NCBI GenBank assembly: GCA_002441125.1
Contig: DJVI01000015.1
Span: 69,315 to 133,314 of the forward strand
DNA: 64,000 nt
Direction of reading: 5' to 3'
Origin: a candidate division WOR-3 bacterium UBA6260
GTDB taxonomy: Bacteria > Hydrothermota > 32-111
Shown piece after piece: positions 14,411 to 48,176 of this stretch (within the stretch, counting starts at the first letter, position 1; every line of letters begins with the position of its first letter). Position numbers and translations under genes: made by a program. The notes below the pieces were generated by a model. The model was not told the DNA's origin. It ran no database searches and worked only from the letters and a program-made list of their open reading frames with translations.

Positions 14411-14421
14411 TTTTCCTCCTA

Positions 14422-17865: not shown

Positions 17866-17873
17866 ATTAACTC

Positions 17874-20208: not shown

Positions 20209-20219
20209 AATTCCTCCAT

Positions 20220-23934: not shown

Positions 23935-24705
23935 ATGAAAAGATTCTTTCTTTTATTCTTTCTTTTAATTACAGTTTTAACTTTATTTTCTTACGATTAC
24001 TACCTTCAGAAAGATGATGGGACTTTTGATTTGTATTGGTACGGTAATGTAAGAAGGGCTGTCAAATATTACCTCTCCGATACATGCACCTTGAAGGTTG
24101 TATATTGGGGAAGATACACAAAAAGAAGTGAAACTGATACTATATTGATTTTCAACGATAATTCTGGTATTCCCGGTTCAACAATTTACTCTGATACACA
24201 TCTTGTAAACACAAATAGTTTCCCACTACTTGTTTCTGATACTGTTGTTACACAGGTATTGCTATGTAACACATTCTATGTTGGACTATTTTCAAGATGT
24301 CAGGATCAACCTTCCAACGCTTTGGCATACTTCCTTTCAGATTCAACACCATCTTTTAACTCTTTCTGGGATAGCATCGGAACTTGGGTAGTTCAAAGAA
24401 GAGGTGATTATATAATTCAAGCTAAAGTTTCTGGACCAGAAGGAATAAGTTTAAGATTATATGAAGAGAATCTTTTGGATGAAAAGAAAAAAGATAACAG
24501 GTTTAACATTTCTTTTGAAAACAATTCAATAATGTTAAACAACATACTCTATTTTAAAATGATCGATAAAAGTGGAAGAAAAATCATAGAAGGAAGTTCG
24601 AAAAATGTTCTTATTGATTTAGACAATTTAAAAAGTGGTATTTACTTTTTAATAGTTAAAGATATTAATAACAAAACATACACTAAAAAATTCACAAAGT
24701 TTTAA
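23935..24705 (+). CDS. secreted protein with T9SS-type C-terminal sorting domain
   Basis: Likely true start MKRFFLLFFLLITVL (signal peptide) behind a GGAGGG RBS; the track ORF starts earlier at 23863. C-terminus ...KMIDKSGRKIIEGSSKNVLIDLDNLKSGIYFLIVKDINNKTYTKKFTKF matches the Por/T9SS CTD pattern. Confidence 0.55.
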   Translation: MKRFFLLFFLLITVLTLFSYDYYLQKDDGTFDLYWYGNVRRAVKYYLSDTCTLKVVYWGRYTKRSETDTILIFNDNSGIPGSTIYSDTHLVNTNSFPLLVSDTVVTQVLLCNTFYVGLFSRCQDQPSNALAYFLSDSTPSFNSFWDSIGTWVVQRRGDYIIQAKVSGPEGISLRLYEENLLDEKKKDNRFNISFENNSIMLNNILYFKMIDKSGRKIIEGSSKNVLIDLDNLKSGIYFLIVKDINNKTYTKKFTKF

Positions 24706-24791: not shown

Positions 24792-26732
24792 TTAGGGGAT
24801 TATCGTAATCTTTTTTGTACTTTTTTCAAAACCTGTTTGTAGAATAACTATATAAACACCCGGAGAAACTTTGTTACCACTTGAACCTATATAACCGCTA
24901 ACTGAACTACCAAAAGTATTTGGAACACCATTCCATAAAAAACCTTCCTGATAAACACCCGGAAGGATATTTTCTTTGCTATCATAATAAACAAGTTTCC
25001 CATCAAGAGTGTATATGTATAACATAAGATTTGAAATCTTTCTTTTTATCTCAAAAGGTATCCTGACATAACCTGCTTTCAAAGGGTATGGGTTTGGATA
25101 TGGAGGTAGAAGTTTACTTGAATTTATTTGGTAAACTTCATTAGTATCATCATACATGACAGCTTTATAAAAATCTGGAACTCCATACCCAACAATCTGG
25201 TTTGGATATTCTGAAAAATATGTAGTATCTGGGATCAAAGAAGCGAACGCTCTTTTAGCTGTTTTTGTCAAAGCTTCTTTTACCTTATCTGGTGTCCAGT
25301 TAGGATGTGCCTGTAAAATCAATGCGCAACCAGCACTTACGAGAGCGGTTGAACCGCTTGTCCCAAGAATATAATTGAATGAGTTGGAACTATCCGAAAC
25401 AGTGTATGGCCATTCTGCAAGAGCTACAACTTCAGGTTTATACCTTTTTATCGTTGAATCAATGTAAACATCGTATGTTGGACCGGTAACTGAATACTGT
25501 GAATAAACCATAGAATCATCAACTCCACCAACAGTTAAAACTGAGTAAGCATCAGCAGGTGCTATTATAGATGTGTCAGCTCTGTCTATACCAACATTTT
25601 TTAAATTACCTATTGCATTTACAACAAGTATTCCAAAAGAATCTGATGCGATATTCGCCGCTTTTGAAATATTTGTTGAATCACCGGTCATGACAGAATA
25701 AGGATACCAATCCTTATATCCAACTGAACTTGAAATTATATCAGCACCTAAAGAATCAGCCCATTCACAAGCTCTGATCCAGTTATCCTCTTCAGAGATC
25801 AGCTCAGAATCAGCTATTTCAGTTTTCGCTATAATGTATGATGCACCAAAAGCTGGAGAGATGAGTTCACCTGAATAGTAAGAAGCCATAAGTCCAAGCA
25901 TCTTTGTCCCATGACTAAGCTGGTTAACCTCATCAGGTGATCCTCCATAAATTATACCTGCAAAATCTTTATTCTCTATAAAATCATAGGATGTAACAAT
26001 TTTCACATCTTTGAGTGCTTTATGTATAGGTTTACAAGTGTAAACGAATGTTGTTTCAAAAGGTATTGAGGATGTATCAACAACCATAGATGAATCTTTC
26101 AACATCAGAACACCAGTATCGAAAAGAGCGATAACAACATCTTTTCCTGTATATCCTTTGTTGTGTAAAGTGTTTATGTTCAACATTTTTATCTGGTTGT
26201 AAGAATAATCACCGTAAAAGTAAATATCATCTCCCTTTGAACTATTTATACTTTTACTTTTTATAACATCTTTTACAAGAAAATCTTTTTTCTTCCTCAT
26301 AGTTGAAACTGGAGAAACAGATTTTACGAACGGAAGTTGTGAAATTATTTCAACATCTTTACTCTCAACATATAATGAAACAGCGTTTAACCATTTCGAG
26401 ACCTTTTCAACCTTATAACCTTTACTTTCAAGAATCGAAATGTATTTTTTGTTTACTGGGAGATCAAGGTATCTATATTCTGAAAGATTTTTATTTTTCC
26501 TTCTCTCTTTTGATCTTTCCGTAACATAGGAAGGGTTATTTTTAAAATAACTGACAATCTTCTCTTTAGAATCAAAACCTTTATCTTTGAAAAATACCCA
26601 AACTTTAATCTTTTGAGAATCTAAAGTCGGGTTAGCAAAAATGTTTAAAGATATAAAAATCGATATGAGAAGTGAAAGGATTACAAGAGAGATCTCTTTT
26701 CTTTTCATATTTTTTTCTCCTTTAAAAATCAT
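24792..26732 (-). CDS. subtilisin-like serine peptidase (S8) with T9SS-type C-terminal sorting domain
   Basis: 646 aa. Signal peptide, S8 catalytic triad context (DTGV..., HGT, GTSGSTA), C-terminal YPNPYPLKAGYVRIPF...LYIYTLDGKLVYY...GVYIVILQTGFEKSTKKITIIP CTD. Confidence 0.8.
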   Translation of the reverse strand: MIFKGEKNMKRKEISLVILSLLISIFISLNIFANPTLDSQKIKVWVFFKDKGFDSKEKIVSYFKNNPSYVTERSKERRKNKNLSEYRYLDLPVNKKYISILESKGYKVEKVSKWLNAVSLYVESKDVEIISQLPFVKSVSPVSTMRKKKDFLVKDVIKSKSINSSKGDDIYFYGDYSYNQIKMLNINTLHNKGYTGKDVVIALFDTGVLMLKDSSMVVDTSSIPFETTFVYTCKPIHKALKDVKIVTSYDFIENKDFAGIIYGGSPDEVNQLSHGTKMLGLMASYYSGELISPAFGASYIIAKTEIADSELISEEDNWIRACEWADSLGADIISSSVGYKDWYPYSVMTGDSTNISKAANIASDSFGILVVNAIGNLKNVGIDRADTSIIAPADAYSVLTVGGVDDSMVYSQYSVTGPTYDVYIDSTIKRYKPEVVALAEWPYTVSDSSNSFNYILGTSGSTALVSAGCALILQAHPNWTPDKVKEALTKTAKRAFASLIPDTTYFSEYPNQIVGYGVPDFYKAVMYDDTNEVYQINSSKLLPPYPNPYPLKAGYVRIPFEIKRKISNLMLYIYTLDGKLVYYDSKENILPGVYQEGFLWNGVPNTFGSSVSGYIGSSGNKVSPGVYIVILQTGFEKSTKKITIIP

Positions 26733-34345: not shown

Positions 34346-35422
34346 TTACTTCCCCTGTTTTTTTAATTCTTCATACTTCTTGTAAGCTTCCTGTGACTTA
34401 TCATTCATCTTCATCCTTGAGTAACAGTCAGCTTTTATAAGATAGAGATCACTTATCTCAATACCTGTTTTTGAAATATAATCATCTATAGTTTTTATGG
34501 CATCCGCAAAATCTTTGTTTTTATAATATGCGAAACCTAAATTCAACATAGATTCATAATCATCCTCTTTAAATTTCAAAGCATTTTTAAAGTTGGTTAT
34601 AGCCTCTTTATAATTCTTTTTTTCTTCAAGGTAAATCTTCCCTAATTTGAAAGAAACATCGTTTTTGTAAGTTGAGAGTTTTGCTTTCATCACTGAATCT
34701 GATGATTCGAATATCTTGTTGAAGTTTTCAAAATTTTTCAAAGCTTCTTCAAAATTCTTACTTGAGTATGCAATCTCGCCAAGCCAGTAAATTATCTGTG
34801 GATTTTCAGCATTGATAGCTTTTGCCTTATCGAGATACTTTTTCGCCTCATCGAACTTTTCTTCACCTATGTAATATTTTGCAACATTAAAAAATAGTGA
34901 AAGGTTCTCTGGATTCTTTGAAATAGATTTTTCTATAGTTTTTGTCATATTAGCTTCATCACCATTTTCCGCATAAAGAAGAACAAGGTAATCGTAATTT
35001 ATAGATGTATCCTTTATCTCTTCAGCCTTCAAAAGGTACTTTTCATATTTTGCTTTATTCTCTTTACCATCCTTGTTTCTCAAAAAACCTGTCCCGGCAT
35101 TGAAAAGAACAGGCCAGTAAAATTCAACATTTTCTCTCATTTCTTTCAAAACCTGTTTTGTTGTATCCTTTTCGAGTGCAATTAAAAAATATTCGGAAGC
35201 TTTGTCAAATTCACTTTTTGAACCGTAAGCTTTACCCATCCATAGATACGCTTGTGCGTTATTCGGTTCAAGTTTTATAGCTTCGTTGAACTGAACTATA
35301 GCTTTATCAAAATCGTTTTGCTGCATATATATTATACCTGATGACATATATTGATTGTTACATCCAACAAAAAGTATAATTATCATAGCAACGATTAAAA
35401 ACAAACTAACAAACTTATTCAT
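34346..35422 (-). CDS. TPR-repeat lipoprotein
   Basis: Lipobox LFVGC after signal peptide; multiple TPR units (AQAYLWMGKAY..., FNVAKYY...). Confidence 0.6.
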   Translation of the reverse strand: MNKFVSLFLIVAMIIILFVGCNNQYMSSGIIYMQQNDFDKAIVQFNEAIKLEPNNAQAYLWMGKAYGSKSEFDKASEYFLIALEKDTTKQVLKEMRENVEFYWPVLFNAGTGFLRNKDGKENKAKYEKYLLKAEEIKDTSINYDYLVLLYAENGDEANMTKTIEKSISKNPENLSLFFNVAKYYIGEEKFDEAKKYLDKAKAINAENPQIIYWLGEIAYSSKNFEEALKNFENFNKIFESSDSVMKAKLSTYKNDVSFKLGKIYLEEKKNYKEAITNFKNALKFKEDDYESMLNLGFAYYKNKDFADAIKTIDDYISKTGIEISDLYLIKADCYSRMKMNDKSQEAYKKYEELKKQGK

Positions 35423-35517
35423 TTAATACCTCCTGAAAAAAGAGCAGAATTTAGTGTTTTATTTTATCAAAAAAAAGTTTTTTGTCAATAGTAAGAACTG
35501 AAAGATTAATATAATGT

Positions 35518-35988
35518 TTATTTAAAAATATTATCTATTATATTATCAATCTCATCTTTAAATTCACTGTCAAATGTCATTTTCTCTTCACTCTCTTCCT
35601 TCATAAGTTTAATAATATTTTCACTTAACTTTTTTGTTAAAGTTTGAACAACTCCTATTATAGTATCTTTTGAAAAAAGTGAAACTATTATCAGATCATC
35701 ATTTATAGCAAAATAGAAAAAAGAGAACTTTTTCCCCTCTTGAAAAAGAGTAAAGAAATAATCCTCTTTAACAAGTTTGGCAATACTTTTAGTAGCGTTG
35801 TATATACCAGAGCACAGAGCACCCAAAGATTGGGTGAAATAGTTATCCTTTTTCATTCCTGTTTGAAAGAGAACCTGACCTGAAGTGTTAACGATAATTA
35901 CATTTAAAACTTTTGTGTCCTGTATAAAGATTTTCAACAACCGTTCAACATCCCTAACGGTTGGTTCATCAAGAACAAGTTTTTTCAT
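35518..35988 (-). CDS. roadblock/LC7 domain protein
   Basis: 156 aa. ...VLNVIIVNTSGQVLFQTG...LCSGIYNATKSIAKL...LIIVSLFSKDTIIGVV fits the roadblock/LC7 (MglB-like) pattern. Confidence 0.5.
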   Translation of the reverse strand: MKKLVLDEPTVRDVERLLKIFIQDTKVLNVIIVNTSGQVLFQTGMKKDNYFTQSLGALCSGIYNATKSIAKLVKEDYFFTLFQEGKKFSFFYFAINDDLIIVSLFSKDTIIGVVQTLTKKLSENIIKLMKEESEEKMTFDSEFKDEIDNIIDNIFK

Positions 35989-36000
35989 ATTTTTAATTTA

Positions 36001-36345
36001 TTATAGATTACCTTGCAACTGGTTTGAGATATTTTTAATCTGTATTATGAGAGCACCAATATTTACATTTTTTTCTGCAAGAGCAAAAAGTATAAATTTT
36101 TCTTTCGATATGAAAAGTATTTCACCCTTTTCAGTATAAATTGTTGAAAATATTGGAAGTGTATCAGTGCTTTTCCCTAAACTTTTTTCCATTTCACTGT
36201 TTATTTTTGCCACCATTGCACCCAAAAGATCAGCCATATCACTTTCATAGAATATCTTTTCAACTATAAGTCCATCTTTTGTTAAAACAGCCACACCTTT
36301 AACACCAACTATATCCATCAATTTTTCAATTTTTTCTTTTATCAT
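36001..36345 (-). CDS. roadblock/LC7 domain protein
   Basis: 114 aa. MDIVGVKGVAVLTKDGLIVEKIFYESDMADLLGAMVAKINSEMEKSLGK...GEILFISKEKFILFALAE is a strong roadblock pattern. Confidence 0.65.
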   Translation of the reverse strand: MIKEKIEKLMDIVGVKGVAVLTKDGLIVEKIFYESDMADLLGAMVAKINSEMEKSLGKSTDTLPIFSTIYTEKGEILFISKEKFILFALAEKNVNIGALIIQIKNISNQLQGNL

Positions 36346-37073
36346 TGTTCAAGCACCTGTTTTATGTTTTTTAACAACTGTTTGGCTTTTATAAGAATAA
36401 GTCCAATTTTTACAACCTCCTCTGTAAAAATACCAAGAATATATCCATTCCCTTTAAAAAGGTATATCCTCACTTTTCCTATTTCTATGAATATTCTATC
36501 TATAAGTCCAAGTTCAGTTTTACTTATAGAATCCTCTGATACTGAAAATATTGTTGAGAAAAGAGCAGATGTTATTTCAGGGTCAAGATTTTCAAGTATC
36601 TTCGCTCTTATAACAAGACCAGATTCTTCTATTATTATACTTCCCAAAACTCCGTTTATAGAATTTATCTCTTCAAGGGATCTATCAAGCAAATTTTCAG
36701 TTTCGTTGGCTGTAATAACATTATCTTTTTCAATTTTTTGAAACTCACCTTTTTGTTCAATATTTGATTCATTTTTTTTTACTTCAACTTTATTTGAAAT
36801 TTCTGAAACTACCGGTTCTGCCAGAGATTTCACCAAAGGATCATCTGGAAACTCTTTCAAAAGTTCATTCAAAATGTCAGTTGATGATGGATCGTTTAAC
36901 TCCTTTAACGATCTGTAAAGCAAAATTTTAGCATCCTTTATATCAGGGAACTCTGAAAGTATAAGTTTACAGTAGTTTATAGATTCGTTGAAAGCTTTGT
37001 TCTTAAAAAGATCCTCTGCTATCATTATTATTAATGACACACTATCCCTATCAACCTTCATCCCTTCATTCAA
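36342..37073 (-). CDS. TPR-like N-terminal domain fused to C-terminal roadblock/LC7 domain
   Basis: 243 aa. C-terminal INGVLGSIIIEESGLVIRAKILENLDPEITSALFSTIF...GKVRIYLFKGNGYILGIFTEE. 4-nt overlap with the downstream gene. Confidence 0.5.
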   Translation of the reverse strand: MNEGMKVDRDSVSLIIMIAEDLFKNKAFNESINYCKLILSEFPDIKDAKILLYRSLKELNDPSSTDILNELLKEFPDDPLVKSLAEPVVSEISNKVEVKKNESNIEQKGEFQKIEKDNVITANETENLLDRSLEEINSINGVLGSIIIEESGLVIRAKILENLDPEITSALFSTIFSVSEDSISKTELGLIDRIFIEIGKVRIYLFKGNGYILGIFTEEVVKIGLILIKAKQLLKNIKQVLEQ

Positions 37074-38181
37074 CTTTACCTCCTAAAAGTTCATCGAATG
37101 ATTTTTGACATTCTTTAAGAGATTCAATCAAGTTTTCAACTTTACTCATCTCGTCGGGTGTTTGAAGATTATCGTAAAGTGAAATCAATTCATCTATACT
37201 CTTTTTAATATCTCCCCTTTTAAAATATGCAAAAGAGTTATATTTTTTCATGAACTGATCATCAACTCCCTCATTTTTTGCAATCAGAGAATACTCGTTT
37301 ATCTTGTCAAACTGGTTTGTTGCAAAGAATGAATATATAATCATCCTGTAAGCTTCAACCTTTTTGGGATCCCTTTTTAGGTAATTTTTTAACTCGCTTA
37401 TAGCTTTATCGAAAAGCCCATCATCGAAATAATGTTTAGCTACATCAAAACTGTTCTCAACATCATCCTTCTTGTTTCCCTCAATAACAACTATCCCCAA
37501 TGTAATCATACCATATATCAGTTTTGCTATTTCAAACTCATCGCCATATTTTTCAGCTATATCCTTAATCGTGTTCTTTCCATTTATCATTGAAAATATT
37601 TCCCATTCTTTTGGTTTTAAATCGAGAAGATCCATCTTGTCTGGATTGTCTGAGATTTTTGGGACAACAGAAGAGTTTGGTATTTTTGCTGATAGTCTTG
37701 ACCATTCATCGATTCTTCTCGAACCTTCCATTATCAAAGATTCTGTTTTTATTTTAAATCTGAAAAGATTGTCAAGCACAAAATTACCTTCCTCAAATTT
37801 AAAATATCCTTCTCTCCACTCAAAAAGTTTGTAAATTGTATCCTCTATACGAAGCTGTAAAAATTTTCTAAACTCATTTTCACCCATTATGTTAATTTTT
37901 ATGATCTCTTTAGCTATCTCAACATCATCATTTTGAATTTTGTTGAGTATCCTTTCTTCATAAAACTCTTTCGTAATTTTTCCTGCTTTTATAAGGAGTA
38001 GTGGTAAGGTTTGTCCTTCGAGCCTAACAAAAACAACATTCCCATTTTCAAAATATACATTGGCTTTTTCATCTTTTGATGAATCGATTTTTAAAATACC
38101 ACTCTTCTGGTTAAAAGAGAGGATCTGAAAAAGATCTATAAGATTAAGTTCACTGATAGGTCCTTCTATAGCCAAAATCAC
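37066..38181 (-). CDS. DUF4388 N-terminal domain protein with C-terminal TPR-like repeats
   Basis: 371 aa. ISELNLIDLFQILSFNQKSGILKIDSSKDEKANVYFENGNVVFV is canonical DUF4388. C-terminal helical repeats (YFDDGLFDKAISELKNYLKRDPKKVEAYRMI). Confidence 0.6.
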   Translation of the reverse strand: MILAIEGPISELNLIDLFQILSFNQKSGILKIDSSKDEKANVYFENGNVVFVRLEGQTLPLLLIKAGKITKEFYEERILNKIQNDDVEIAKEIIKINIMGENEFRKFLQLRIEDTIYKLFEWREGYFKFEEGNFVLDNLFRFKIKTESLIMEGSRRIDEWSRLSAKIPNSSVVPKISDNPDKMDLLDLKPKEWEIFSMINGKNTIKDIAEKYGDEFEIAKLIYGMITLGIVVIEGNKKDDVENSFDVAKHYFDDGLFDKAISELKNYLKRDPKKVEAYRMIIYSFFATNQFDKINEYSLIAKNEGVDDQFMKKYNSFAYFKRGDIKKSIDELISLYDNLQTPDEMSKVENLIESLKECQKSFDELLGGKVE

Positions 38182-38183
38182 TC

Positions 38184-40892
38184 CTATTCAAAAATTGATA
38201 TCCAGTTTCTTGCAGCTTCAATCGCTTTTGCACTTTTTTGGGCAAATTCAGATTCTGGAGAATTTTTTAACACAGAGTTCCATCTCTCAATAGCCTCTTT
38301 TATATAACCTTCTTTTGCAATTATCTTAGCAAAGTTAAAATTAGCTTCAGGATTTGTAGGATCTAATTTTAAAGCGTTTTGATAAGCATCCTTTGCTACT
38401 TCAATATTTTCTATCTCTATACAAACTGAACCTATTCTTAAAAACGCTTTAAGGTTCGTTGGGTCTATCTGAACAATCCTTGTATATATCTGTATAGATT
38501 TTTCATAATCTTCAACTAATTCATACACGGTTGCAAGTTCCCAAAGATAGTTTAGATTATCAACATCTTTACTTATAAGTGATTCAAGAATTTTTATCGA
38601 ATCATCAAACATCTTCATTCTTCTCAAGACAAGAGCTTTTTTATAGAGAATATCAAGATTTTCACTATCCTTTTTCAGGATCCTTTCGTAGATTTCAAGT
38701 GCATCATTGTCCCTTCCCTGACTAACATAGATTTCAGACAGATTTGTAAGAGTTTCTACATTTTCAGGGTCCTTTAAAAGTATTTCTCCTATTATTTTTA
38801 TCGCTTCCTCAAGATTACCATCCTTCCATAAGAGCATAGAATAAAGGTTCAAAACATCTATCCTGTTTCTATCCCTTTCAACTATTTTTGAAATGTATTC
38901 TATAGGTTCAGAATAGATTCCTTTGTTGTAAAGTAACTTTGAAAGTTTCAAAACAACATTCTCATTCAAAGGAGATAAAGCGACAACTTTTCTGTAATAT
39001 TCTTCAGCCTCACCATATATCTCTTTTATGTTGTAAACATCACCTATTATTTCAAACATCTCAACATCATTTTCATCCTTCCTAACAACCTCGAAAGCGT
39101 TTTGTAAAGCCATGTCATATTCACCTTTTTGGAAGGATTCCTTAGCTTTCTTTCTCTTCTCTTCAAGTATATCAACCTCTTTTAACTTAACATCCTCTCT
39201 CTCAAAAGTATCATCCGTTTCCTCTTCAAAAACACCTGTAAAAATATCTGAACTTTTTTCTTCACCCATAGAAAAACCTTCAAGTTGTTCTGAAGATGTT
39301 ACCTGAACATCTTTTGATAAACTTCCACTTATCAGTACATCCACTTTATCAGCATAGTAATCAAGCCCGAGTTTATACCTCGTTTCAACATAGTAAGGGT
39401 TCAACCTTAAAGCTTCCTTGGTGTATTTCAAAGCATCCTCATACCTTCCAACCTTAGTTAGTGTGAAAGCTAAGTTATAGTAAGCTTCGGCGAAATTCTC
39501 ATCATATTGGATAGCTTTTTCAAAAACTTTTATAGCATCCTCATACTTCCCTTCCTCTCTATAAATTATTCCAAGATAGTTATAGGTTAAAGGATAATCT
39601 CCTTTTATTTCAAGAACTTTATCTATATATTTTTTTGCCTCAACAAAATTTTTATTTTCTATGAAAATTATTGATAGGTTCAAAAGTGCATCAACATAAT
39701 CATCCCTTATTTGAAGTGATTTGTTGAACATCTTTAAAGCTTCATCAGTCTTATTTTTATGAAGCATCGCTATACCGAGATTGTTGTAAGCCATAACATA
39801 GGTTGGATCAATTTTTATCGATCTGTTATAACATTCTATTGCATTATCTATATCACCTTTTTTATGGAAAGCTATACCCATATCGTTGTAAGCTTTTGCT
39901 GCAAATGATTCATCCTTGAAAGCGAGTTTGTACTCTTCTATAGCTTTATCGTTCTCACCCAAAAGTAGATATATTTCTCCTATCTGGATATGTATCAAAG
40001 CTCTATCAGGTTCTACAGCTTCAGCTTTTTTGAACTCTTTCAAAGCTTCGTTGAAAAGTCCTTTGTTTCTGAAACCTATTCCGAGTGTAAAGTAAGTTAA
40101 AAAACTATTTGGCTGAATTGAAACATTAGATTCTTCCTGAACAAAATTCTGATACATACCCTGTTGGTAAAAATCTATTCCAAGATTTGCCTGTGTTTTT
40201 CCATAAGCAGGGTTAAGTTTGATCGCCTTTTTAGTTTCCTTGATAGCATCATCAAAAAGCCCCTTCTCTCCATAAACAAAACCTAAAAGGAAATGTGCCT
40301 CTGCAAGATTCGGATCAAGTTCTAAAGCTTTTTGGAACTCTTTAATAGCTGAATCTAAGATTCCTTTATTATAATAAACCTCTCCAAGCATAGAATGTAT
40401 CTGTGCTGAATGGGGTTGTACCTTTAAAGATTTTCTGTACTCTTCTATAGAATCATCATACATACCTAACGATTTGTATATCTTTGCCAAATTCAATCTC
40501 GCATCGATAAAGGAAGGGTTAATCTTCAAAATCCTTTTGTATTCAGCTATAGCATCAAGTGATTTTCCCATATTGTTCAAAGCTTCAGCGAGTTTAAACC
40601 TTGTAGAAATATCCTCAGGGTCTTTTTCAAGTATATCTTTGTACTCTTTTATCTTCTCATCGTACATCCCTGTCTCTTTATAGATGAGTTCAAGGTTTTT
40701 CTTTGCAAGTGTGAATTTTGGATCTATAGCGAGAGCCTTTTCAAGTTCCTCTATCGCCTCATCGTACAAACCTTTGTTGTAATAAACAACAGCCAAATTG
40801 TTATGGGCACCAGCATCCTTTGGATCTATCCTTTGAGCAAAAGATTTTAAAACTTTCTTTTCAGCTTCTGAAATTTGAACCTGTTTTTTCAT
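38184..40892 (-). CDS. large TPR-repeat protein (902 aa)
   Basis: More than 20 tandem TPR units (AHNNLAVVYYNKGLYDEAIEELEKALAIDPKF... repeated throughout). No TM. Confidence 0.75.
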   Translation of the reverse strand: MKKQVQISEAEKKVLKSFAQRIDPKDAGAHNNLAVVYYNKGLYDEAIEELEKALAIDPKFTLAKKNLELIYKETGMYDEKIKEYKDILEKDPEDISTRFKLAEALNNMGKSLDAIAEYKRILKINPSFIDARLNLAKIYKSLGMYDDSIEEYRKSLKVQPHSAQIHSMLGEVYYNKGILDSAIKEFQKALELDPNLAEAHFLLGFVYGEKGLFDDAIKETKKAIKLNPAYGKTQANLGIDFYQQGMYQNFVQEESNVSIQPNSFLTYFTLGIGFRNKGLFNEALKEFKKAEAVEPDRALIHIQIGEIYLLLGENDKAIEEYKLAFKDESFAAKAYNDMGIAFHKKGDIDNAIECYNRSIKIDPTYVMAYNNLGIAMLHKNKTDEALKMFNKSLQIRDDYVDALLNLSIIFIENKNFVEAKKYIDKVLEIKGDYPLTYNYLGIIYREEGKYEDAIKVFEKAIQYDENFAEAYYNLAFTLTKVGRYEDALKYTKEALRLNPYYVETRYKLGLDYYADKVDVLISGSLSKDVQVTSSEQLEGFSMGEEKSSDIFTGVFEEETDDTFEREDVKLKEVDILEEKRKKAKESFQKGEYDMALQNAFEVVRKDENDVEMFEIIGDVYNIKEIYGEAEEYYRKVVALSPLNENVVLKLSKLLYNKGIYSEPIEYISKIVERDRNRIDVLNLYSMLLWKDGNLEEAIKIIGEILLKDPENVETLTNLSEIYVSQGRDNDALEIYERILKKDSENLDILYKKALVLRRMKMFDDSIKILESLISKDVDNLNYLWELATVYELVEDYEKSIQIYTRIVQIDPTNLKAFLRIGSVCIEIENIEVAKDAYQNALKLDPTNPEANFNFAKIIAKEGYIKEAIERWNSVLKNSPESEFAQKSAKAIEAARNWISIFE

Positions 40893-40897
40893 TCAAC

Positions 40898-41515
40898 CTA
40901 CCTGTTTAAAAAATCGAGAAGTTTTTTCAAAGAGATCGGATCAGGTAAAAGTATAAGATATCCTTTCAAAGGCTGTGGATCATCCTCAAAGGTGAATTCT
41001 GTCTCTACACAGAAAACCACATCCTTGTTAGAACTGAAATCTATATAAGCTGAAGTTATAACCGCTGATCCTATATCTATAACAAGATTTGGTACTGATG
41101 GGAGTATCAGCATGTTCAAAAAATCACTCATAGCTGTTAGGTATGAACTTATAACTATATTTGCAACCTCTTTGATAGCTGATTGCTCTATCTCACTTAA
41201 AATGGTTGTGGATCCAACAGTTTTTCCCATTACCATATCAACAAGAAGCATTGACTCATCTCTTGGGAATATGAGTAGAGTTCTACCTGTAAGATCACCA
41301 AGAAACTTAACAAGAACTCCGGTGACTATCTCATCCTGATTGTTTATTATTCTGTAAATCTCTTCAGAGGAGATTATGTGAACCTTTGGAACGGAAACCA
41401 TAACCCTCTTATTTACAAGTTGGGAGAGAACCGTTGCGGCATGTCCTCCTCCAATATTAGATATCTCTTTGATACCATCAAGATGAAAATCTTTTAAGTT
41501 GTTAAAATCAATCAT
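40898..41515 (-). CDS. cheC: CheC-family chemotaxis phosphatase
   Basis: 205 aa. Two CheC-type repeats (EISNIGGGHAATVLSQLVNKRV; EIEQSAIKEVANIVISSYLTAMS). Confidence 0.7.
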   Translation of the reverse strand: MIDFNNLKDFHLDGIKEISNIGGGHAATVLSQLVNKRVMVSVPKVHIISSEEIYRIINNQDEIVTGVLVKFLGDLTGRTLLIFPRDESMLLVDMVMGKTVGSTTILSEIEQSAIKEVANIVISSYLTAMSDFLNMLILPSVPNLVIDIGSAVITSAYIDFSSNKDVVFCVETEFTFEDDPQPLKGYLILLPDPISLKKLLDFLNR

Positions 41516-41518
41516 AAA

Positions 41519-43393
41519 TTACCCCTCTTTAGCCATCGATACAACTCCGGGAACATCAACTATGAAAGATGGCATTCCATTGTTTAATATTGATACACCT
41601 GCAAGCCCATGGATACCTGAAAGTATCCCTTTTAAAGGCTTTACAACTACCTCAGATTGTTCCATAAAACTATCAACAAGTATCCCATAGAAAGACTCAT
41701 CGACTTCAACAAGAACTATAGAATATTTTTCTCTCTCTCCAGTATTCTCACATTTGAAAATATTTGATAACCTAACAAGTGGTATAACCTCATCTCTCAA
41801 AACAAATACTTCTTTACCCATTATAGTGAAAATATCTTCCTTTTTAATATCTATTGTTTCAACTATATGTGATAGAGGAATTATATATGTCTCATCACTA
41901 ACCTTAACTATCAATGTTTTTATTATTGCAAGTGTAAGAGGTAGTTTTAAAGTGAATGTTGTTCCCTTGTTTTTCTGTGATGAGATTTCAAGTGTTCCTC
42001 CTATCTGTTTTAGAACATTATAAACCGCACCAACTCCAACACCTCTTCCAGATATATCGTTTACTTCCTCTTTAGTTGAGAAACCTTCACTCGTGATGAA
42101 AGAATAGATATCGTTTTCACTCAGATGTTGAACCTTTTCTTCATCTACCAAATTCAAAGATAAAGCTTTTTCAATTATTTTATTTTTATCCAACCCTTTG
42201 CCATCATCTGAAACAATAATCAATACACCGTTTTTAACTCTCTTAGCTTCGAGAATAATATTACCTGTCTCATCCTTTTTGTTTTTCAACCTTTCTTCCG
42301 GGCTTTCTATACCATGATCAACAGCATTCTTTAAAAGATGCAACAAAGGATCAGCCAAAGAATTCAGAATAGCCCTATCAAGTTCAATATCCTTTCCCTT
42401 TATTATAAAGTTTATCTTTTTTTTCAATCTATTTGAAAGATCCCTGATATATCTTGGATACCTGTCAAAAACCTGTCCAACAGGGACCATCCTTATTTTC
42501 ATTATCTCATCCTGAATGTTTGAAATGATCTTTGATGTTGAATTCAATGAATTTATCAACTCTTCGTTCTGTAAAGAGTAAGCTATCTGTTGTAACCTTC
42601 CTCTCGCTATTACAAGTTCGGAAGCATAATTTTGAAGGTTATCCAACCTTTCAAGTGAAACTTTTATATCCTTTTTTTCGATAACCGTTTCCTGTTCGTT
42701 TTTAATCTCCTCTTTTAAAACAAAAGCATCTTTTATTTCTGGAATCCCTTTTATCTCTTCTATTATACTGTTTATCTGGGGTGTATCTTTGATGAAGATC
42801 TTTATCTCATCTTTAAAGTTCTCCTTCATTATGGAATCAAAATCTGGATCACTTTTTATGTAAAGTTTTTTATCCTGTAAATTTTTAATCACCACAAACG
42901 CTCGTGCAGATTTTAATACAACATCGTCAGCAAAAATAATTTTAATAACCTTTTCTGAAAGTGAAATCCTTTCAGGTTCTTTTTTCTCTTTCCTTTCCTC
43001 AACTATATTCTTTTCCTTAATAGTTTCAGAACCTGTTTTTATAGATTCTATCACCTTTAAAAAACTTTTTATTATGTTCTCATCTATCTGACTTTTATGA
43101 ACTAAAGATTGAATGTAGTCTGTTCCCTTTAAAAGTAGATCTACAAGTTCAGAACTGACCTGTAATTTTTCGCTCCTTATAAGATCCATAACATCTTCTA
43201 TTGAGTGAGAAATTTTTGTTATAGAAGAATAGCCCATCGAAGCTGCCATGCCTTTTATAGTATGCATACCTCTAAAAATGGAATTTATAGCCTCGATGTC
43301 GTTCATATCCTTTTCAAGTTTCAAGATGGAATCTGAAACTTGTTCGAGGTATTCCTCAGCTTCACTTATGAACAATTCTTCATAGTTTGTCAT
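41519..43393 (-). CDS. cheA: chemotaxis histidine kinase CheA
   Basis: 624 aa. P1 Hpt (MHTIKGMAASMG), P3/P4 HATPase (HLLKNAVDHGIE...GRGVGVGAV), P5 CheW-like C-terminus. Confidence 0.9.
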   Translation of the reverse strand: MTNYEELFISEAEEYLEQVSDSILKLEKDMNDIEAINSIFRGMHTIKGMAASMGYSSITKISHSIEDVMDLIRSEKLQVSSELVDLLLKGTDYIQSLVHKSQIDENIIKSFLKVIESIKTGSETIKEKNIVEERKEKKEPERISLSEKVIKIIFADDVVLKSARAFVVIKNLQDKKLYIKSDPDFDSIMKENFKDEIKIFIKDTPQINSIIEEIKGIPEIKDAFVLKEEIKNEQETVIEKKDIKVSLERLDNLQNYASELVIARGRLQQIAYSLQNEELINSLNSTSKIISNIQDEIMKIRMVPVGQVFDRYPRYIRDLSNRLKKKINFIIKGKDIELDRAILNSLADPLLHLLKNAVDHGIESPEERLKNKKDETGNIILEAKRVKNGVLIIVSDDGKGLDKNKIIEKALSLNLVDEEKVQHLSENDIYSFITSEGFSTKEEVNDISGRGVGVGAVYNVLKQIGGTLEISSQKNKGTTFTLKLPLTLAIIKTLIVKVSDETYIIPLSHIVETIDIKKEDIFTIMGKEVFVLRDEVIPLVRLSNIFKCENTGEREKYSIVLVEVDESFYGILVDSFMEQSEVVVKPLKGILSGIHGLAGVSILNNGMPSFIVDVPGVVSMAKEG

Positions 43394-43396
43394 ATT

Positions 43397-43765
43397 CTAT
43401 TTCAAATTTAACACTCTGTTAACAGATTCAAGAACTCTTGATGGTTGGAAAGGTTTTACTACAAAATCTTTAGCACCAGCCTGTATAGCTTCGACAACAA
43501 GTGATTGTTGCCCCATAGCTGAAACCATAAGAATTTTTGCGTTTGGAAACTCTTTGATGATTTCTCTTACAGCATCGATTCCAGACATATCTGGCATTAT
43601 GATGTCCATAGTAACAAGATCAGGCTGCAATTCTCTATACATCTGAACAGCCTGTGATCCTGTACCAGCCTCTCCACAGATTTCGAACCCCTCTTTCTTC
43701 AAAATATCTGCGATCATCCTTCTCATAAAAATCGCGTCATCAACGATTAGCACCCTTGTAGACAT
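43397..43765 (-). CDS. cheY: chemotaxis response regulator CheY
   Basis: 122 aa receiver; RVLIVDDAIFMRRMI, phospho-Asp context LVTMDIIMPDMSG, K at +~50. Confidence 0.9.
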   Translation of the reverse strand: MSTRVLIVDDAIFMRRMIADILKKEGFEICGEAGTGSQAVQMYRELQPDLVTMDIIMPDMSGIDAVREIIKEFPNAKILMVSAMGQQSLVVEAIQAGAKDFVVKPFQPSRVLESVNRVLNLK

Positions 43766-43776
43766 ATTTTTTCCTC

Positions 43777-44175
43777 CTAATTTTTATTGATGATATTTTT
43801 CAAATTTAATATTATAATCTCTTTACCATCTTTTTCAACAAATCCTTTTATATACTCACCTTCACTTTCTTCCTCTTTAACTTTGGTAACATTTATTATA
43901 CCCTCTATATTATCAACAAGAAGTCCATATTTTTCTTTATCCTTTTCACAAATAATTATATAATTTTCTTCAACCTTTTTGTTTATCTTCAACTTTTTCT
44001 TCAAAGAGATCAAAACTACAACATCTCCTCTTAAATTTATAACACTCTCTATATAATCTTGGGCATTTGGAATCCTTATCCCATTCATTTTTTCATATAT
44101 ATCTATGATATCCGATATGTTTATCCCGTATATCTTTCCTTCAATTTTAAAAGTTATATACTGTTCATTTGCCAT
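43777..44175 (-). CDS. cheW: chemotaxis coupling protein CheW
   Basis: Start moved to MANEQYITFKIEG (ATG at 44175) behind an AGGAG RBS. The track ORF extends to 44217 and overlaps the MCP gene. Confidence 0.8.
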   Translation of the reverse strand: MANEQYITFKIEGKIYGINISDIIDIYEKMNGIRIPNAQDYIESVINLRGDVVVLISLKKKLKINKKVEENYIIICEKDKEKYGLLVDNIEGIINVTKVKEEESEGEYIKGFVEKDGKEIIILNLKNIINKN

Positions 44176-47100
44176 TTTCTTCAATCTCCTTCCAAGTGTA
44201 TTCGATAGGCAAAGCACTTAAAGGATGTGCATAGAAGCCATGTACTTTTTCACTGATAGCGATCTGTTTATAGTTATGAGTTAAAAATACCCAGGGAGCA
44301 TCATCTACTATAATTTTTTCAATATCCTGATAAAGTTTGTTTCTCTCTTCAAAGTTTGTAGTCATTCTCGCTTTCAAAATAAGATTATCAACCTCTCTGT
44401 TTGAATAGAATGAGTTGTTACCACCATCTCCAAAACTCTCACTATGGAAAAGTGGATAAAGGAAATTGTCTGGTTCACCTGTATCACCAGCCCATCCCAT
44501 CATAAAAAGATCACATTTACCAGAATGCATCCTATCTAAAAGTTCAACCCACTTCAAAGGTACTATTTTTATTTTTATACCTATCTGTTGCCACATATCC
44601 TGTAAGAGTTCAGCCCTCTTCAAAACCCTTTCAGAATTTGAACATATCATCTCAAAATGGTGTTTTATACCGTCAGAAAAACCTGCCTTTATCATAAGTT
44701 CTTTTGCTTTTGATATGTTATAAGGATAACCTTCTTGCGATTTATTGTAACATTGGAGTGATGGTGGAAAAACTCCCTTGGAGATTATACCGAGCCCGAA
44801 CATAGTTTCGTTTATATACCTCGATTTATCTGTAGCATAGTTTATCGCTTTTCTGACTTCTTTTGTAAGTGTGATCTCGTTTTTCCTTGAAAAGTTGAAG
44901 CCAACATATTGGACATCCAAGGAAGGAATAGTTAAAACTTTTATATCCAATCTGTTCAATTTTTTTAGTTTTTCAAGGTCCTCAGCGTTGACTGAACAAT
45001 AATCAATATTTTTTGAAAGTAGTTCCTCAAATTCATCCTCTTCCCTTTTAATTTTAATTTCAACATTCTCTACAAAAGGTTCACCACCAAAATAATGTTT
45101 GTTTGATTCCATTAAAATTCTTTCGTCATCAACATATTTCATAACGAAAGGTCCACAACCTATACAGTTATTTTTCATCTTCTCATCTGAAAATTTAACC
45201 ATATCCTTTTTAATTATGGAAAGAGATATAACAGCAAGGTTTGAAAGGAAAGGAATATATGGATAATCTAAAACGAACTTAACGGTATGGTCATCTATAA
45301 CCTCTATACCTTCAACATCCCTTGCTCTCCTCTTTATATAGTTCTGTGCTCCTTTTATCATGTTAACGAAAGAAGAGTTTGGAGTCAAAAGGACATTTTT
45401 AAAACTCTCTTTTACATCCTCTGCTGTAACTGGAGTGCCATCATGGAAATAAGCGTTCTCCCTTAAGAAAAAAATCCATTCTGTTGCATCTGAGTTTATA
45501 TGCCAATATTTTGCAAGTGCTGGAACAACATTGGTATCCTTTCCGAATTTTACAAGACCTGAATGTATCTGTTGTAAAATTGTGTTACTCGTAGAATCAC
45601 CAACAAGTGCAGGATGCCAATGAACAGGAAGATTGTTCATTATAAACTTGAATCTGTTCTTCTCTGGATTCCTTTTAATTATAAATTTTTGTGAAATAGT
45701 ATCCTGTATACCTCTTAACATCTTCAAAGAATCATCACTTTTTAAAATATCGTTTTTAAAAATCTTGTTTAGTTCTTCAGCCATCTGGTTTATTTTTTCA
45801 GATTTCGCTATTATATTTTTGTAAAGTTTTACTATATCATCCTTTAATTTTTCCTGCTGGGTGATAGAGTCGTATATCTCTTTTAAAAGATTTTTAAAAT
45901 TCTCAGCTGAATCTTTTACATCGTTCACAACTTTACTACTCGTTTCTATTGAAAAGATTATCTTTTTAGCAGAATCGAGTTCTTTATCGACAATATTCAA
46001 AACATCCAAAAGAAGATTTTCCATATTCTTCACTATATTTTTTATCTCCAAAGAAGCGTCTGTGGCTTTTTTGATCAATTCCTTTGTTTGTGAAACTATA
46101 ACCGCAAGATTCTGTTGATATTTGCCAGATCTTGCAGCCTCAATCGAAGCATAAAGTGAAAGCAGCCTTGTCTGTTCTGACAATTCTTTCAACTCAATAC
46201 TGGTTTCAAAGATGAGTTTCAAATTTATCGATATATCGTTGAAATCATCTTTAAGGTTTAAAATCATATTGAGAGTTTTCTCTATTTCACTTTTAACATT
46301 GATAATACTTGTTGAGAACTCGTTAACAGCCCCAAGTAGCAGATTCAGATTATCCTCTATCTCACCAACATTTTTGATCATAAGTTGTTCGCTCTCTTCT
46401 ATAGATTCTATAGCTTGGAAATAGTTCTTAACAACTTTTGATTGTTCCTCATTCCTCTCGATAAAATCCCTTATAACACTCATGGTCTGATCTATGATAT
46501 TCTTACTGTTTTCAAGAGTTATCTCTATCTTTTTGAACATCTTCAACTCTGTAGATATTGAATTATCTATAGATTTTTTTCCGTATATAAGATCGGAAAG
46601 AGGATCAAGTTGTTGCATCAGATTCGACAATCCTATTTTAACATCAGATTGTGTTTTAACCATAGTGAGAAGTTTCTCTGTCGATTGTAATGAAACATCT
46701 ACTATATTTTGGACACTCCTGTTAAGATCGTTTATGAGATTTTTGTTTTTATCCTGAATGTTTATATACTCTTTCATCCTATCAGATTTGGATACAATAT
46801 CTAAAAGGTTCATCTGAACATTTTTCAACCTGAAACTCAAAAGATCTATATTTCTTTTTAAAGTGTCTATTTTGTATGAAACATTATCAACTGATTCAAC
46901 AACTTTTTCAGTTTTCACTTTTATATTTTCTATACTTTCAGGAATCCTTTTTGGTAGGTTGAATGTTTTATTTGCGAGAAGAAGCATCCTGTCAGCTATA
47001 ACCTCAAATCCCTTTCCACTCTCTCCAGCATGGTAAGATTTAATACCAGCGTTCCTTGCAGCTGATTCTGTCATCTGCGCTATTCCAATTATGATTTCAG

Positions 47101-47518
47101 TTATCTGTCCTATATGTTTTGAATAATCGTTGAAAGGTTTCACAATATCGAGTATCTTAGAAGAACCACTCGTAAATATGTTCAACTGGTTTATAACCTG
47201 ATCGAATTCTGTAACACTATTTTTAATACTTTCTGTAGAATTTTTCGAATAATCTATTAAAACATCCGCTGCCTCTGAAACTATCTGTATTGATGCATAG
47301 AGTTTATTCCCTCTATCCTCAATTTTTTCTATCTCTTCTATAAGCCCTTTCTCTTCAACTGAAATTGAGGATAGTATAGAATGGGCATTCCTGTTTATCT
47401 CAAGGAGTTCATCATCTTCTATTTTTATTGTTTTCAAAGCATAGACAAAAGCTGTAGGATCAAACTCCTCTTCTTGGACAACTCCCTTTCTTTTTAAAAA
47501 ATTAAAGAAAGAAACCAT
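44165..47518 (-). CDS. soluble chimeric chemoreceptor: MCP-signal-like coiled-coil N-terminal half fused to C-terminal family-5 solute-binding-protein domain
   Basis: 1117 aa, no TM or signal peptide. MCP core-like segments SAARNAGIKSYHAGESGKGFEVIADRMLLLANKT and LLSLYASIEAARSGKYQQNLAVIVSQTKELIKKA. Last ~500 aa SBP_bac_5-like (VHWHPALVGDSTSNTILQQIHSGLVKFGKDTNVVPALAKYWHINSDATEWIFFLRENAYFHDGTPVTAEDV...). Confidence 0.75.
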   Translation of the reverse strand: MVSFFNFLKRKGVVQEEEFDPTAFVYALKTIKIEDDELLEINRNAHSILSSISVEEKGLIEEIEKIEDRGNKLYASIQIVSEAADVLIDYSKNSTESIKNSVTEFDQVINQLNIFTSGSSKILDIVKPFNDYSKHIGQITEIIIGIAQMTESAARNAGIKSYHAGESGKGFEVIADRMLLLANKTFNLPKRIPESIENIKVKTEKVVESVDNVSYKIDTLKRNIDLLSFRLKNVQMNLLDIVSKSDRMKEYINIQDKNKNLINDLNRSVQNIVDVSLQSTEKLLTMVKTQSDVKIGLSNLMQQLDPLSDLIYGKKSIDNSISTELKMFKKIEITLENSKNIIDQTMSVIRDFIERNEEQSKVVKNYFQAIESIEESEQLMIKNVGEIEDNLNLLLGAVNEFSTSIINVKSEIEKTLNMILNLKDDFNDISINLKLIFETSIELKELSEQTRLLSLYASIEAARSGKYQQNLAVIVSQTKELIKKATDASLEIKNIVKNMENLLLDVLNIVDKELDSAKKIIFSIETSSKVVNDVKDSAENFKNLLKEIYDSITQQEKLKDDIVKLYKNIIAKSEKINQMAEELNKIFKNDILKSDDSLKMLRGIQDTISQKFIIKRNPEKNRFKFIMNNLPVHWHPALVGDSTSNTILQQIHSGLVKFGKDTNVVPALAKYWHINSDATEWIFFLRENAYFHDGTPVTAEDVKESFKNVLLTPNSSFVNMIKGAQNYIKRRARDVEGIEVIDDHTVKFVLDYPYIPFLSNLAVISLSIIKKDMVKFSDEKMKNNCIGCGPFVMKYVDDERILMESNKHYFGGEPFVENVEIKIKREEDEFEELLSKNIDYCSVNAEDLEKLKKLNRLDIKVLTIPSLDVQYVGFNFSRKNEITLTKEVRKAINYATDKSRYINETMFGLGIISKGVFPPSLQCYNKSQEGYPYNISKAKELMIKAGFSDGIKHHFEMICSNSERVLKRAELLQDMWQQIGIKIKIVPLKWVELLDRMHSGKCDLFMMGWAGDTGEPDNFLYPLFHSESFGDGGNNSFYSNREVDNLILKARMTTNFEERNKLYQDIEKIIVDDAPWVFLTHNYKQIAISEKVHGFYAHPLSALPIEYTWKEIEENGK

Positions 47519-47585
47519 TTTAAGTCCTTTTTAAAAATAAAATATATCATAATAATAAAAATAAATCAATATGTGATATGGGGAA

Positions 47586-48176
47586 TCAATCTAAATTCTG
47601 TCTCTTTTCAACAGAACATTGGAGTGTGAAATCATCTATATATTCGAAATCTGTACCAAAAGGTATTCCTCTTGCGATAGTTGTTATCCTTTCAACCTTA
47701 TCCTTTAAAAGTTTAGTTAGATATATAGTTGTTGTTTCTCCCTCAGTTGAAGGTGAAAGTGCTATTATCACCTCTTTAATATTTCCCTTCTCAACTCTTT
47801 GTAAAAGTTTATCGAATGAGAGTTTTTCAGGTGTTATCCCATCCAATGGAGAGATAAGTCCCCCAAGAATATGGTAAAGTCCATTGAACCTTTTTGTCCT
47901 TTCAAAAATAAACAGATCCCTCGGCTTTTCAAGAACCATCAAAATATTCTCATCCCTTTTTCCATTGGAACAGATACTACATGGGTCAGTTTCATCTATA
48001 CTTCCACATATAGAACAAACCTTCATATTTTCAGAGAGTTCAAGAATCGATTCCGATAACTCTTTCGAAAAATCTTTTCCTTTCGAGATCAAAAAGAATA
48101 TAAGTCTTTCAGCTGATTTATCACCAATACCAGGCAGTTCTTTCAAATTTTTTTTCAACCTTTCAAAACTTGTCAT
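47586..48176 (-). CDS. recR: recombination protein RecR
   Basis: 196 aa. HhH N-terminus, C4 zinc finger CSICGSIDETDPCSIC, Toprim. Confidence 0.9.
   Translation of the reverse strand: MTSFERLKKNLKELPGIGDKSAERLIFFLISKGKDFSKELSESILELSENMKVCSICGSIDETDPCSICSNGKRDENILMVLEKPRDLFIFERTKRFNGLYHILGGLISPLDGITPEKLSFDKLLQRVEKGNIKEVIIALSPSTEGETTTIYLTKLLKDKVERITTIARGIPFGTDFEYIDDFTLQCSVEKRQNLD

Follow-up and report, generated by a model that had tools for sequence, protein, structure and literature searches.

The window analysed here, a 64-kb stretch of DNA from the candidate division WOR-3 bacterium UBA6260, contains on its minus strand a cluster of ten co-oriented genes (35518-47518). They code, in this order, for a soluble chemoreceptor (methyl-accepting chemotaxis protein, MCP), CheW, CheY, CheA, CheC, a 902-residue tetratricopeptide repeat (TPR) protein, a PATAN (DUF4388)-TPR protein, and three roadblock proteins. 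With somewhat better than even chances, we consider these genes to be part 1 of a chemosensory-polarity system that is conserved in the FCB superphylum, is here split in two, and has type IV pili as its output. In contrast to the spacing of the genes, their linkage is special: it is conserved far beyond this lineage.

An earlier interpretation made from the letters of the DNA (the sequence-only reading) had given the same gene order and coordinates, and Pfam supports every domain call made in it. Its junctions at 38181/38184, 37066-37073 and 36342-36345 were verified in the coordinates. The genes are separate open reading frames (ORFs), however, and not translationally fused as had been claimed, and their tight spacing is no evidence for coupling. 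The window (~32% G+C) is 96.6% coding, 66 of its 68 genes lie on the minus strand, and the median same-strand spacing is near zero. The median same-strand gap is 3 nt in the cluster compared to -0.5 nt elsewhere in the window (Mann-Whitney p = 0.81); 81% of the same-strand junctions outside the cluster measure at most 12 nt, and housekeeping genes are equally packed. Because the rest of the window has the same spacing, the tight junctions are uninformative on coupling; tight spacing is a genome-wide trait. In this highly compact, strand-biased genome, motility genes are interspersed among ribosomal and replication genes. The cluster is bounded by recR (47586-48176) and by a TPR lipoprotein gene, which is followed by rplM-rpsI (from 35422 downwards). 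A terminator between cheC and the TPR gene, which had been named as an argument against the linkage, was looked for; no terminator-like site was found at this junction, where the gap is only 5 nt.

Relatives were collected by means of a PATAN-TPR profile scan with one genome per GTDB species. It led to 530 relatives, of which 80 loci were fetched; their six-frame ORFs were searched with profiles of the window proteins and with MglA. Compared loci and contigs are labelled with L-numbers, and L007-L012 and L089 are the WOR-3-type loci. Exact or near-exact copies of the cluster occur on many public contigs with unchanged gene order. Among named genomes, candidate division TA06 bacterium 32_111 (94%) and several candidate division WOR-3 metagenome-assembled genomes (MAGs; 90%) come closest by PATAN identity, and farther relatives labelled WOR-3 or Stahlbacteria share 52-63%. 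In Gemmatimonadota, the order is cheW-cheY-cheA-cheC-TPR(~900 aa)-PATAN/TPR(~380 aa)-TPR/roadblock-roadblock-roadblock, followed by mglA. CheA, CheC and the adjacent TPR gene were found in 46 of 46 Gemmatimonadota loci having upstream coverage and in seven of seven WOR-3-type loci; roadblock genes were found in 58 of 58 and seven of seven loci, respectively. The che-TPR-DUF4388-roadblock linkage to which the sequence-only reading had drawn attention thus recurs in relatives. In 57 of the 58 Gemmatimonadota loci, mglA lies at most 3.2 kb downstream, directly after the third roadblock gene. The encoded GTPase has 199-200 residues and the motifs YYGPGxxGKTT, TVPGQ and NK(x)D (NKRD/NKQD/NKQG), and it matches a hand-entered M. 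xanthus MglA query with E of ~1e-74. No mglA was found within 10 kb on either side of the seven WOR-3-type loci.

The block extends further in several phyla. Past mglA, Gemmatimonadota carry genes for a DnaA-like AAA+ protein, a second PATAN/TPR protein (~540 aa), CheB and two CheW proteins. Edwardsbacteria have an identical order plus cheR-cheD-cheB, and their cluster also contains a Por_Secre_tail/FlgD_ig protein. The Gemmatimonadota locus checked (L051, 13338-15287) and Edwardsbacteria (L090) encode the DnaA-like AAA+ ATPase (450-650 aa) between mglA and the second PATAN/TPR gene, and it occupies the same place in WOR-3-type lineages (L206, 3418-5076; also L201, L204 and L205); we know of no counterpart in the Myxococcus polarity module. 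In a Krumholzibacteriota genome (L091, JAXHNR010000001.1), the order is cheR-MCP-cheW-cheD-cheB-cheA-cheC-cheY-TPR-PATAN/TPR, and no roadblock or MglA genes were seen nearby. Since this full che operon is accompanied by the TPR and PATAN/TPR genes alone, the link between che and PATAN exists without the GTPase module in cis. A Zixibacteria contig (L092) has PATAN-TPR/roadblock-roadblock-MglA-roadblock and then directly pilB-pilT-pilC-pilS. The flanking genes differ, with ileS-lspA-rluD in Gemmatimonadota and dnaX-ybaB-recR in the window, and the PATAN proteins are ~30% identical across phyla. It is the order conserved across phyla, and not the spacing, that argues for a coupling of the che with the TPR, PATAN and roadblock genes.

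A Walker A motif is absent from all window ORFs of at least 100 residues except DnaX, the search of the window ORFs for MglA gave no match, and the full annotation of the window contains no cheB, cheR or cheD. The absence of a P-loop GTPase and of these three che genes, as noted by the sequence-only reading, therefore holds for the 64 kb. A scan of metagenomes with an AT-biased P-loop DNA pattern detected many low-GC contigs with MglA, several of them named WOR-3 or Stahlbacteria. In three WOR-3-type lineages, a second block (part 2) was found with the order (efp or accB)-pilT-[accC/thiE]-mglA-DnaA-like AAA+-PATAN/TPR(~530 aa)-cheR-cheD-cheB-TPR-[AAA]-cheW[-MCP-cheW]-cinA-ligT-recA. The sister MAG JAWOBN01 contains both parts. 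Contig JAWOBN010000081.1 carries the MglA-less part 1 (L011), whose PATAN protein is 56% identical to that of the window, and contig JAWOBN010000030.1 carries efp-pilT-mglA-AAA+-PATAN/TPR530-cheR-cheD-cheB-TPR-cheW; the protein accessions of the two parts are 807 numbers apart. Two further MAGs of the lineage with 63% identity pair both parts, with accession differences of 607 and 521. The GC content agrees between the parts (0.387 for both L205 and L010).

In sister genomes, the system is hence split in two, with mglA, cheR, cheD, cheB, cheW and pilT located together elsewhere. Because JAWOBN01 has them together on another contig, the system probably does not lack the GTPase and CheB/CheR; we infer MglA for the window's own genome from the sister WOR-3-type genomes. 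The split accounts for the apparently missing GTPase and cheB/cheR of the window. Most likely, the window contains part 1 of a divided chemosensory-polarity system, the probable output of which is type IV pili and not gliding linked to a type IX secretion system (T9SS). Some candidates for further parts were rejected. One pair of close accessions, MEO0287856 (MglA) and MEO0288764 (PATAN), was set aside: the two are in proximity in only one of six MAGs, and this type of MglA comes from 27%-GC contigs having their own PATAN cluster (L156). Near mglA in L201, TPR899 was discarded as an orthologue of the window TPR protein with only 24% identity, and a 392-residue ORF considered as a PATAN orthologue is an outer-membrane-like protein.

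Profile searches uphold the roadblock and DUF4388 calls. The Robl_LC7 (PF03259) scores of the three roadblock proteins are 32.1, 33.2 and 26.7 bits (cut-off 23), the lowest belonging to the third of them, RB3 (35518-35988, 156 aa). RB3 matches the M. xanthus MglB structures 6izw, 6h5b and 6hjm over residues 14-155 (E = 2e-12) and the NCBIfam model MglB NF052242 over residues 8-155 (E = 5e-12; 46.3 bits, below the equivalog cut-off of 200). This model was built on Thermus-type MglB, and RB3 is therefore a distant orthologue. Its C-terminus, DEIDNIIDNIF, aligns with DDDIDNLF of the C-terminal helix of M. xanthus MglB, and the motif is retained in every lineage, whether or not mglA is adjacent. 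The MglB C-terminal helix reportedly contacts MglA. Judged by its sequence, RB3 is orthologous to MglB over its whole length, the C-terminal helix motif included, with a predicted GTPase-activating (GAP) activity. The expectation of the sequence-only reading that roadblock and DUF4388 proteins belong with a small Ras-like GTPase agrees with this assignment and with the position of mglA in Gemmatimonadota. No coupled mglA, in the sense of Wuichet 2015 (within about four genes), accompanies RB3, and the 64-kb window contains no MglA.

The other two roadblock proteins resemble generic roadblock structures. RB1 (36342-37073, 243 aa) has an N-terminal TPR-like and a C-terminal Roadblock/LC7 domain (Robl_LC7, E = 1e-7), and it matches the PDB roadblock entries 7yh1 and 9jue with E = 3e-6. 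Its TPR call is weak (TPR_19, E = 0.002), whereas the Gemmatimonadota orthologue has clear TPR and Robl_LC7 domains. RB2 (36001-36345, 114 aa) is a bare Roadblock/LC7 domain of MglC-like size (Robl_LC7, E = 4e-8; PDB entry 7f8m, E = 7e-4) that is kept at the same position in all lineages. The PATAN-TPR protein (37066-38175, with the ORF reaching to 38181; 369-371 aa) has a PATAN match (DUF4388/PatA_N, PF14332) of 87.3 bits against a cut-off of 25, which covers residues 6-161 and has a helical segment inserted; it is followed by a small alpha/beta domain and a C-terminal TPR domain. Gene callers place its start at 38175, two codons past the GTG start. As the C-terminus is a TPR and not a receiver (REC) domain, and the receiver is the separate CheY, this protein is not a PatA-type (PATAN-REC) regulator. 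The 902-residue TPR protein (38184-40892; Pfam TPR families with E-values down to 5e-102) is a putative scaffold with two TPR arrays and an acidic linker between them at about residues 515-575. An orthologue of ~900 residues lies directly upstream of the PATAN gene in 46 of 46 Gemmatimonadota and seven of seven WOR-3-type loci.

Several observations connect the block to type IV pili. The ATPase encoded beside mglA passes the PilT/PilU model TIGR01420 with 452 bits (cut-off 319), and pilT lies upstream of mglA in L201-L207. In L160, the gene of a REC-PATAN response regulator adjoins pilB, and the same contig has mglB-mglA at a distance of ~6 kb. The regulator of L160 stands next to a 788-residue PilB-type ATPase (MshEN and T2SSE domains) with an N-terminal extension (4816-8252). 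In Synechocystis, a PATAN domain on its own suffices to bind PilB1 and PilC and to reverse phototaxis. In Myxococcus, MglA-GTP together with the 14-TPR protein SgmX recruits PilB (PMC7519303, PMC7668184, PMC11580455), and two PATAN proteins co-occur with SgmX. Passages of PMC4316618 report PATAN genes near some mglA/mglB genes, and polarity in Myxococcus uses more than one roadblock protein, namely MglB and MglC (PMC4719450, PMC10329633). The sequence-only reading had proposed a non-canonical output through a polarity or a gliding/T9SS-type module. The gene context (pilT, pilB-pilT-pilC, and REC-PATAN beside pilB) favours type IV pili over a gliding/T9SS output.

The following mechanism is proposed. 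The cytoplasmic receptor with its DppA-like domain, for which the domains were identified and a ligand is presumed, would control CheA via CheW. CheA would then phosphorylate the single-domain CheY, and CheC would dephosphorylate CheY-P; the catalytic motifs are present. CheY-P may act on a complex of the 902-residue TPR protein, the PATAN-TPR protein and the three roadblock proteins including the MglB orthologue, as suggested by the conserved synteny and by REC-PATAN fusions elsewhere. This complex would govern the nucleotide state or localisation of a GTPase of the MglA type, which is presumed for the window's genome. The output would be the polarity or activity of type IV pili via the PilB/PilT ATPases, either through MglA or directly through PATAN; gene context and the roles of PATAN, MglA and SgmX in cyanobacteria and Myxococcus point to it.

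A number of observations weigh against this proposal. All protein interactions within the proposed system are deduced from gene context, and the annotation of the window contains no pil structural genes. By sequence, the 902-residue TPR protein is not an SgmX orthologue (65 bits with the NCBIfam model SgmX NF052243, cut-off 1800), and the likeness is limited to its being a long TPR protein. The known contigs of the window's own lineage carry no MglA or PATAN/TPR532 among the matches listed. The AT-biased metagenome scan, which was not exhaustive, detected no MglA contig attributable to this lineage, and the same non-exhaustive searches found no pilT or other part-2 gene of it. Finally, the models that match the che core (CheA with P2, CheC, CheD) best come from Thermotogales and haloarchaea, and a core of this type usually serves flagella or archaella. 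This last point leads to the explanation that the che genes run ordinary flagellar chemotaxis, the TPR, PATAN and roadblock proteins being co-transcribed accessories that position or regulate the flagellum or the chemoreceptor array. The core does resemble the CheC/CheD-containing class, with CheA_Halo, CheC_Thtogales and FliY as its best NCBIfam matches; CheA includes P2, CheY consists of a receiver domain only, and cultured Gemmatimonas is flagellated. However, the called genes of all annotated loci, the window included, contain no flagellar Pfam family, no flagellar genes are annotated in the window, the sole neighbouring motility ATPases are PilT and PilB, and MglA, MglB and PATAN have known roles in controlling pili and gliding. 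We regard flagellar chemotaxis as unlikely for these reasons. With a che core of the CheC/CheD type, the suggestion of the sequence-only reading that the output is not flagellar is not proven. Gliding or another surface motility, linked to T9SS or driven by an ExbB/ExbD-type motor as in Myxococcus Agl-Glt, appears quite unlikely as the output. The window encodes a T9SS-type cargo protein (Por_Secre_tail), the Edwardsbacteria cluster includes a protein with this domain, a second PATAN gene of the window lies in a long unannotated run that ends in exbB-exbD-exbD-tonB, and MglA also controls gliding in Myxococcus (PMC4508894). Yet the annotation of the window, where many neighbouring ORFs lack a Pfam match, revealed no recognisable gld, spr or glt genes, exbB-exbD-exbD-tonB operons are common transport-energising units, and relatives have pilT and pilB, and not gliding genes, conserved beside mglA.

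The question of MglA gives rise to a different explanation, namely that the lineage has truly lost this GTPase and that the MglB-like, roadblock, PATAN and TPR proteins are GTPase-independent effectors under the direct control of CheY-P. The lack of mglA in the window and within 10 kb on either side in all seven WOR-3-type loci fits this explanation, as do three different searches, in which no MglA or part-2 protein among the matches listed was assignable to the window's lineage; passages of PMC4316618 describe orphan MglB homologues as common (328 of 749). These lineage searches, however, used prefiltered match lists and not whole-genome scans, two sister lineages with an MglA-less part 1 encode MglA elsewhere, and RB3, which is under purifying selection, has retained the motif that corresponds to the MglB C-terminal helix in the alignment. 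A true loss therefore seems improbable to us; if true, it would mean a chemotaxis output of an undescribed kind that steers a pilus or another surface-motility machine. That the ten genes lie together by accident and without functional meaning, in an extremely compact genome with its genes on a single strand, could be suspected from the 96.6% coding density, from the 81% of junctions of at most 12 nt, and from the location of the cluster between recR and rplM, where housekeeping genes are as tightly packed. Such an accident is contradicted by the synteny counts, as the order is kept across phyla in different flanking contexts with PATAN proteins of ~30% identity, and can be considered extremely improbable.

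The proposed chemosensory-polarity system shares features with several known systems. As in Myxococcus xanthus (Frz, MglA/MglB/MglC/RomR and SgmX), there is a cytoplasmic MCP (cf. FrzCD) with a CheA/CheW core, an MglB orthologue with the C-terminal helix, extra roadblock paralogues (cf. MglC), a large TPR protein, an MglA GTPase (in relatives) and a likely type IV pilus polarity output. Unlike in Frz, CheA lacks the receiver fusion found in FrzE, and the response regulator is a plain CheY and not FrzX or the dual-receiver FrzZ. The PATAN-TPR proteins and the TPR-roadblock fusion are integral here, the TPR protein stays below the cut-off of the SgmX model, a RomR-like gene was not observed, and mglA is not adjacent in this lineage. 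In Myxococcus, the way in which the chemosensory pathway talks to the MglA/MglB switch is still debated, and the genes are scattered. According to passages of PMC4316618, frz, mglBA and sgmX are unlinked there, whereas here one conserved block is found. In the cyanobacterial Tax/Pix systems with PatA-type regulators, a che-like pathway is likewise linked to PATAN, which serves as the output domain that binds PilB1 and PilC; in contrast, PATAN is here fused to TPR and not to REC, the receiver is encoded by a separate cheY gene, and roadblock proteins and MglA are included.

The linkage of roadblock, MglA and PATAN genes as such has been described for MglA-MglB pairs near PATAN genes (Makarova et al. 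2006; Wuichet and Sogaard-Andersen 2015). PMC4316618 also reports that Gemmatimonadetes have group 1 MglA and that some MglA genes have two coupled MglB genes; its gene-neighbourhood and signal-transduction passages contain neither a che core, a 900-residue TPR protein and three roadblock proteins as one block, nor a split. In the actinobacterial conservons (CvnA-D), the gene of a histidine kinase similarly stands together with those of a roadblock protein and a GTPase of the MglA family (PMC4316618). Their kinase, however, is a membrane sensor and not CheA, MCP, CheW, CheY, PATAN and TPR are lacking, and their function is not motility. In the Pil-Chp system of Pseudomonas aeruginosa, the kinase ChpA is a multi-Hpt hybrid, the outputs are PilG and PilH, and no roadblock protein, MglA or PATAN is known from it. 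This chemotaxis-like pathway steers type IV pilus polarity (PMC12632253), which is the likeness to the system proposed here. In the literature searched, the coverage of which was incomplete, neither a che-TPR-PATAN-three-roadblock-MglA block nor its split form is described, and nothing usable on the motility of WOR-3 was found. Thus, whereas the linkage of roadblock, MglA and PATAN is known, the joined che block and the split form appear to be largely undescribed. The block is a conserved, largely undescribed wiring of chemosensing to cell polarity that probably steers type IV pili. Across phyla, and in Gemmatimonadota more completely than here, the che core is kept together with three roadblock proteins (one of them MglB), two PATAN-TPR proteins, a 900-residue TPR protein, an AAA+ protein and MglA, with PilT in WOR-3-type lineages. 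This provides a short ordered list of candidate connectors from CheY-P to the GTPase cycle, and the main value of the block is that of a compact cross-phylum parts list. The genus Gemmatimonas has cultured species; since it also carries the block (L060), the wiring is directly testable.

The chemosensory core of the cluster (MCP, CheW, multi-domain CheA and CheY) is complete, and no transmembrane segments were found in any of the ten cluster proteins. The cytoplasmic chemoreceptor (44165-47518, 1117 aa) has two MCP-signalling regions (residues 74-275 and 425-603; MCPsignal, E = 5e-28), each with a hairpin-tip-like motif, and a C-terminal DppA/OppA-like SBP_bac_5 domain (residues 636-1102; E = 7e-83); its score with the NCBIfam DppA model, 221 bits, lies under the model cut-off. 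A signal peptide is absent, and the maximum KD19 hydropathy of 1.35 indicates that there is no transmembrane segment. The fusion of MCP and binding-protein domain is kept in L001-L012 and L089, including all WOR-3-type loci, and is missing from the Gemmatimonadota blocks. The receptor could be a single-chain pseudo-dimer with a cytoplasmic binding-protein sensor. CheW (43777-44175; CheW, E = 4e-25) overlaps the stop codon of the MCP gene by 11 nt; its likely start is the ATG at 44175, which gives 132 residues as on public contigs, and the ORF can be extended to a GTG at 44217. CheY (43397-43765, 122 aa; Response_reg, E = 7e-31) has the DD pair, the TMD aspartate, VSA and VKP; acidic pocket, Ser/Thr and Lys are those typical of CheY. 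A relative with ~90% identity in the remaining cluster proteins shares 99% identity in CheY. CheA (41519-43393) has the domain order P1(Hpt)-P2-P3-P4-P5 without a receiver (Pfam Hpt, P2, H-kinase_dim, HATPase_c and CheW) and the Hpt motif HTIKG; its best NCBIfam match is CheA_Halo (455 bits, under the equivalog cut-off). The predicted CheC-type CheY-P phosphatase (40898-41515; CheC, E = 5e-21) contains both [DS]x3Ex2Nx22P active-site motifs (residues 13-43 and 112-142) and reaches 178 bits with CheC_Thtogales. FliY is also among the best NCBIfam matches of the core. Compared with L008, the dN/dS values of the ten cluster genes are 0.006-0.057 (0.006 for CheY, 0.05 for RB1 and RB2, 0.04 for RB3); these are rough values with dS near saturation, and they indicate strong purifying selection on all ten genes within the window's own lineage.

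The sole gaps of more than 12 nt that flank the ten genes are spacers of 67 nt and 95 nt, both on the minus strand. The upstream spacer (47519-47585), between recR and the MCP gene, contains weak promoter-like matches (9/12) at 47577-47549 and 47569-47541. The downstream spacer (35423-35517), located before the TPR lipoprotein gene, contains a strong sigma-70-like match at 35488-35461 (TTGACA-16-TAAAAT with an extended -10 TG, 11/12), which is followed by AGGAGG, a good ribosome binding site; the equivalent position holds mglA in Gemmatimonadota. The TPR lipoprotein gene (34346-35422) was rejected as an eleventh member, as it is preceded by a strong promoter-like site of its own, encodes a signal peptide, and is missing downstream in L011, L012 and L089.

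Elsewhere in the window, a weak match to the Por_Secre_tail sorting domain (23863-24705, plus strand) adjoins a subtilisin-like peptidase S8 (24792-26732, minus strand), a pair that suggests that the organism has a type IX secretion system. A run of ~20 co-oriented genes on the minus strand (6291-23789), most of them without Pfam match, includes the second PATAN gene (10691-11584, 297 aa). Recognised in this run were two DUF6754 genes, a PF13941 MutL-like ATPase and an LplA-like protein, and it ends with exbB/motA-exbD-exbD-tonB; it may represent an undescribed envelope or motility machine. Near the end of the window, a PilS-like six-helix membrane domain is fused to GGDEF (61199-62347, plus strand). 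A REC-HD_5 response regulator is encoded beside this gene (62318-63808, minus strand), and the gene of a large PAS/GAF histidine kinase runs off the window end. This set points to cyclic di-GMP signalling, possibly tied to pili.

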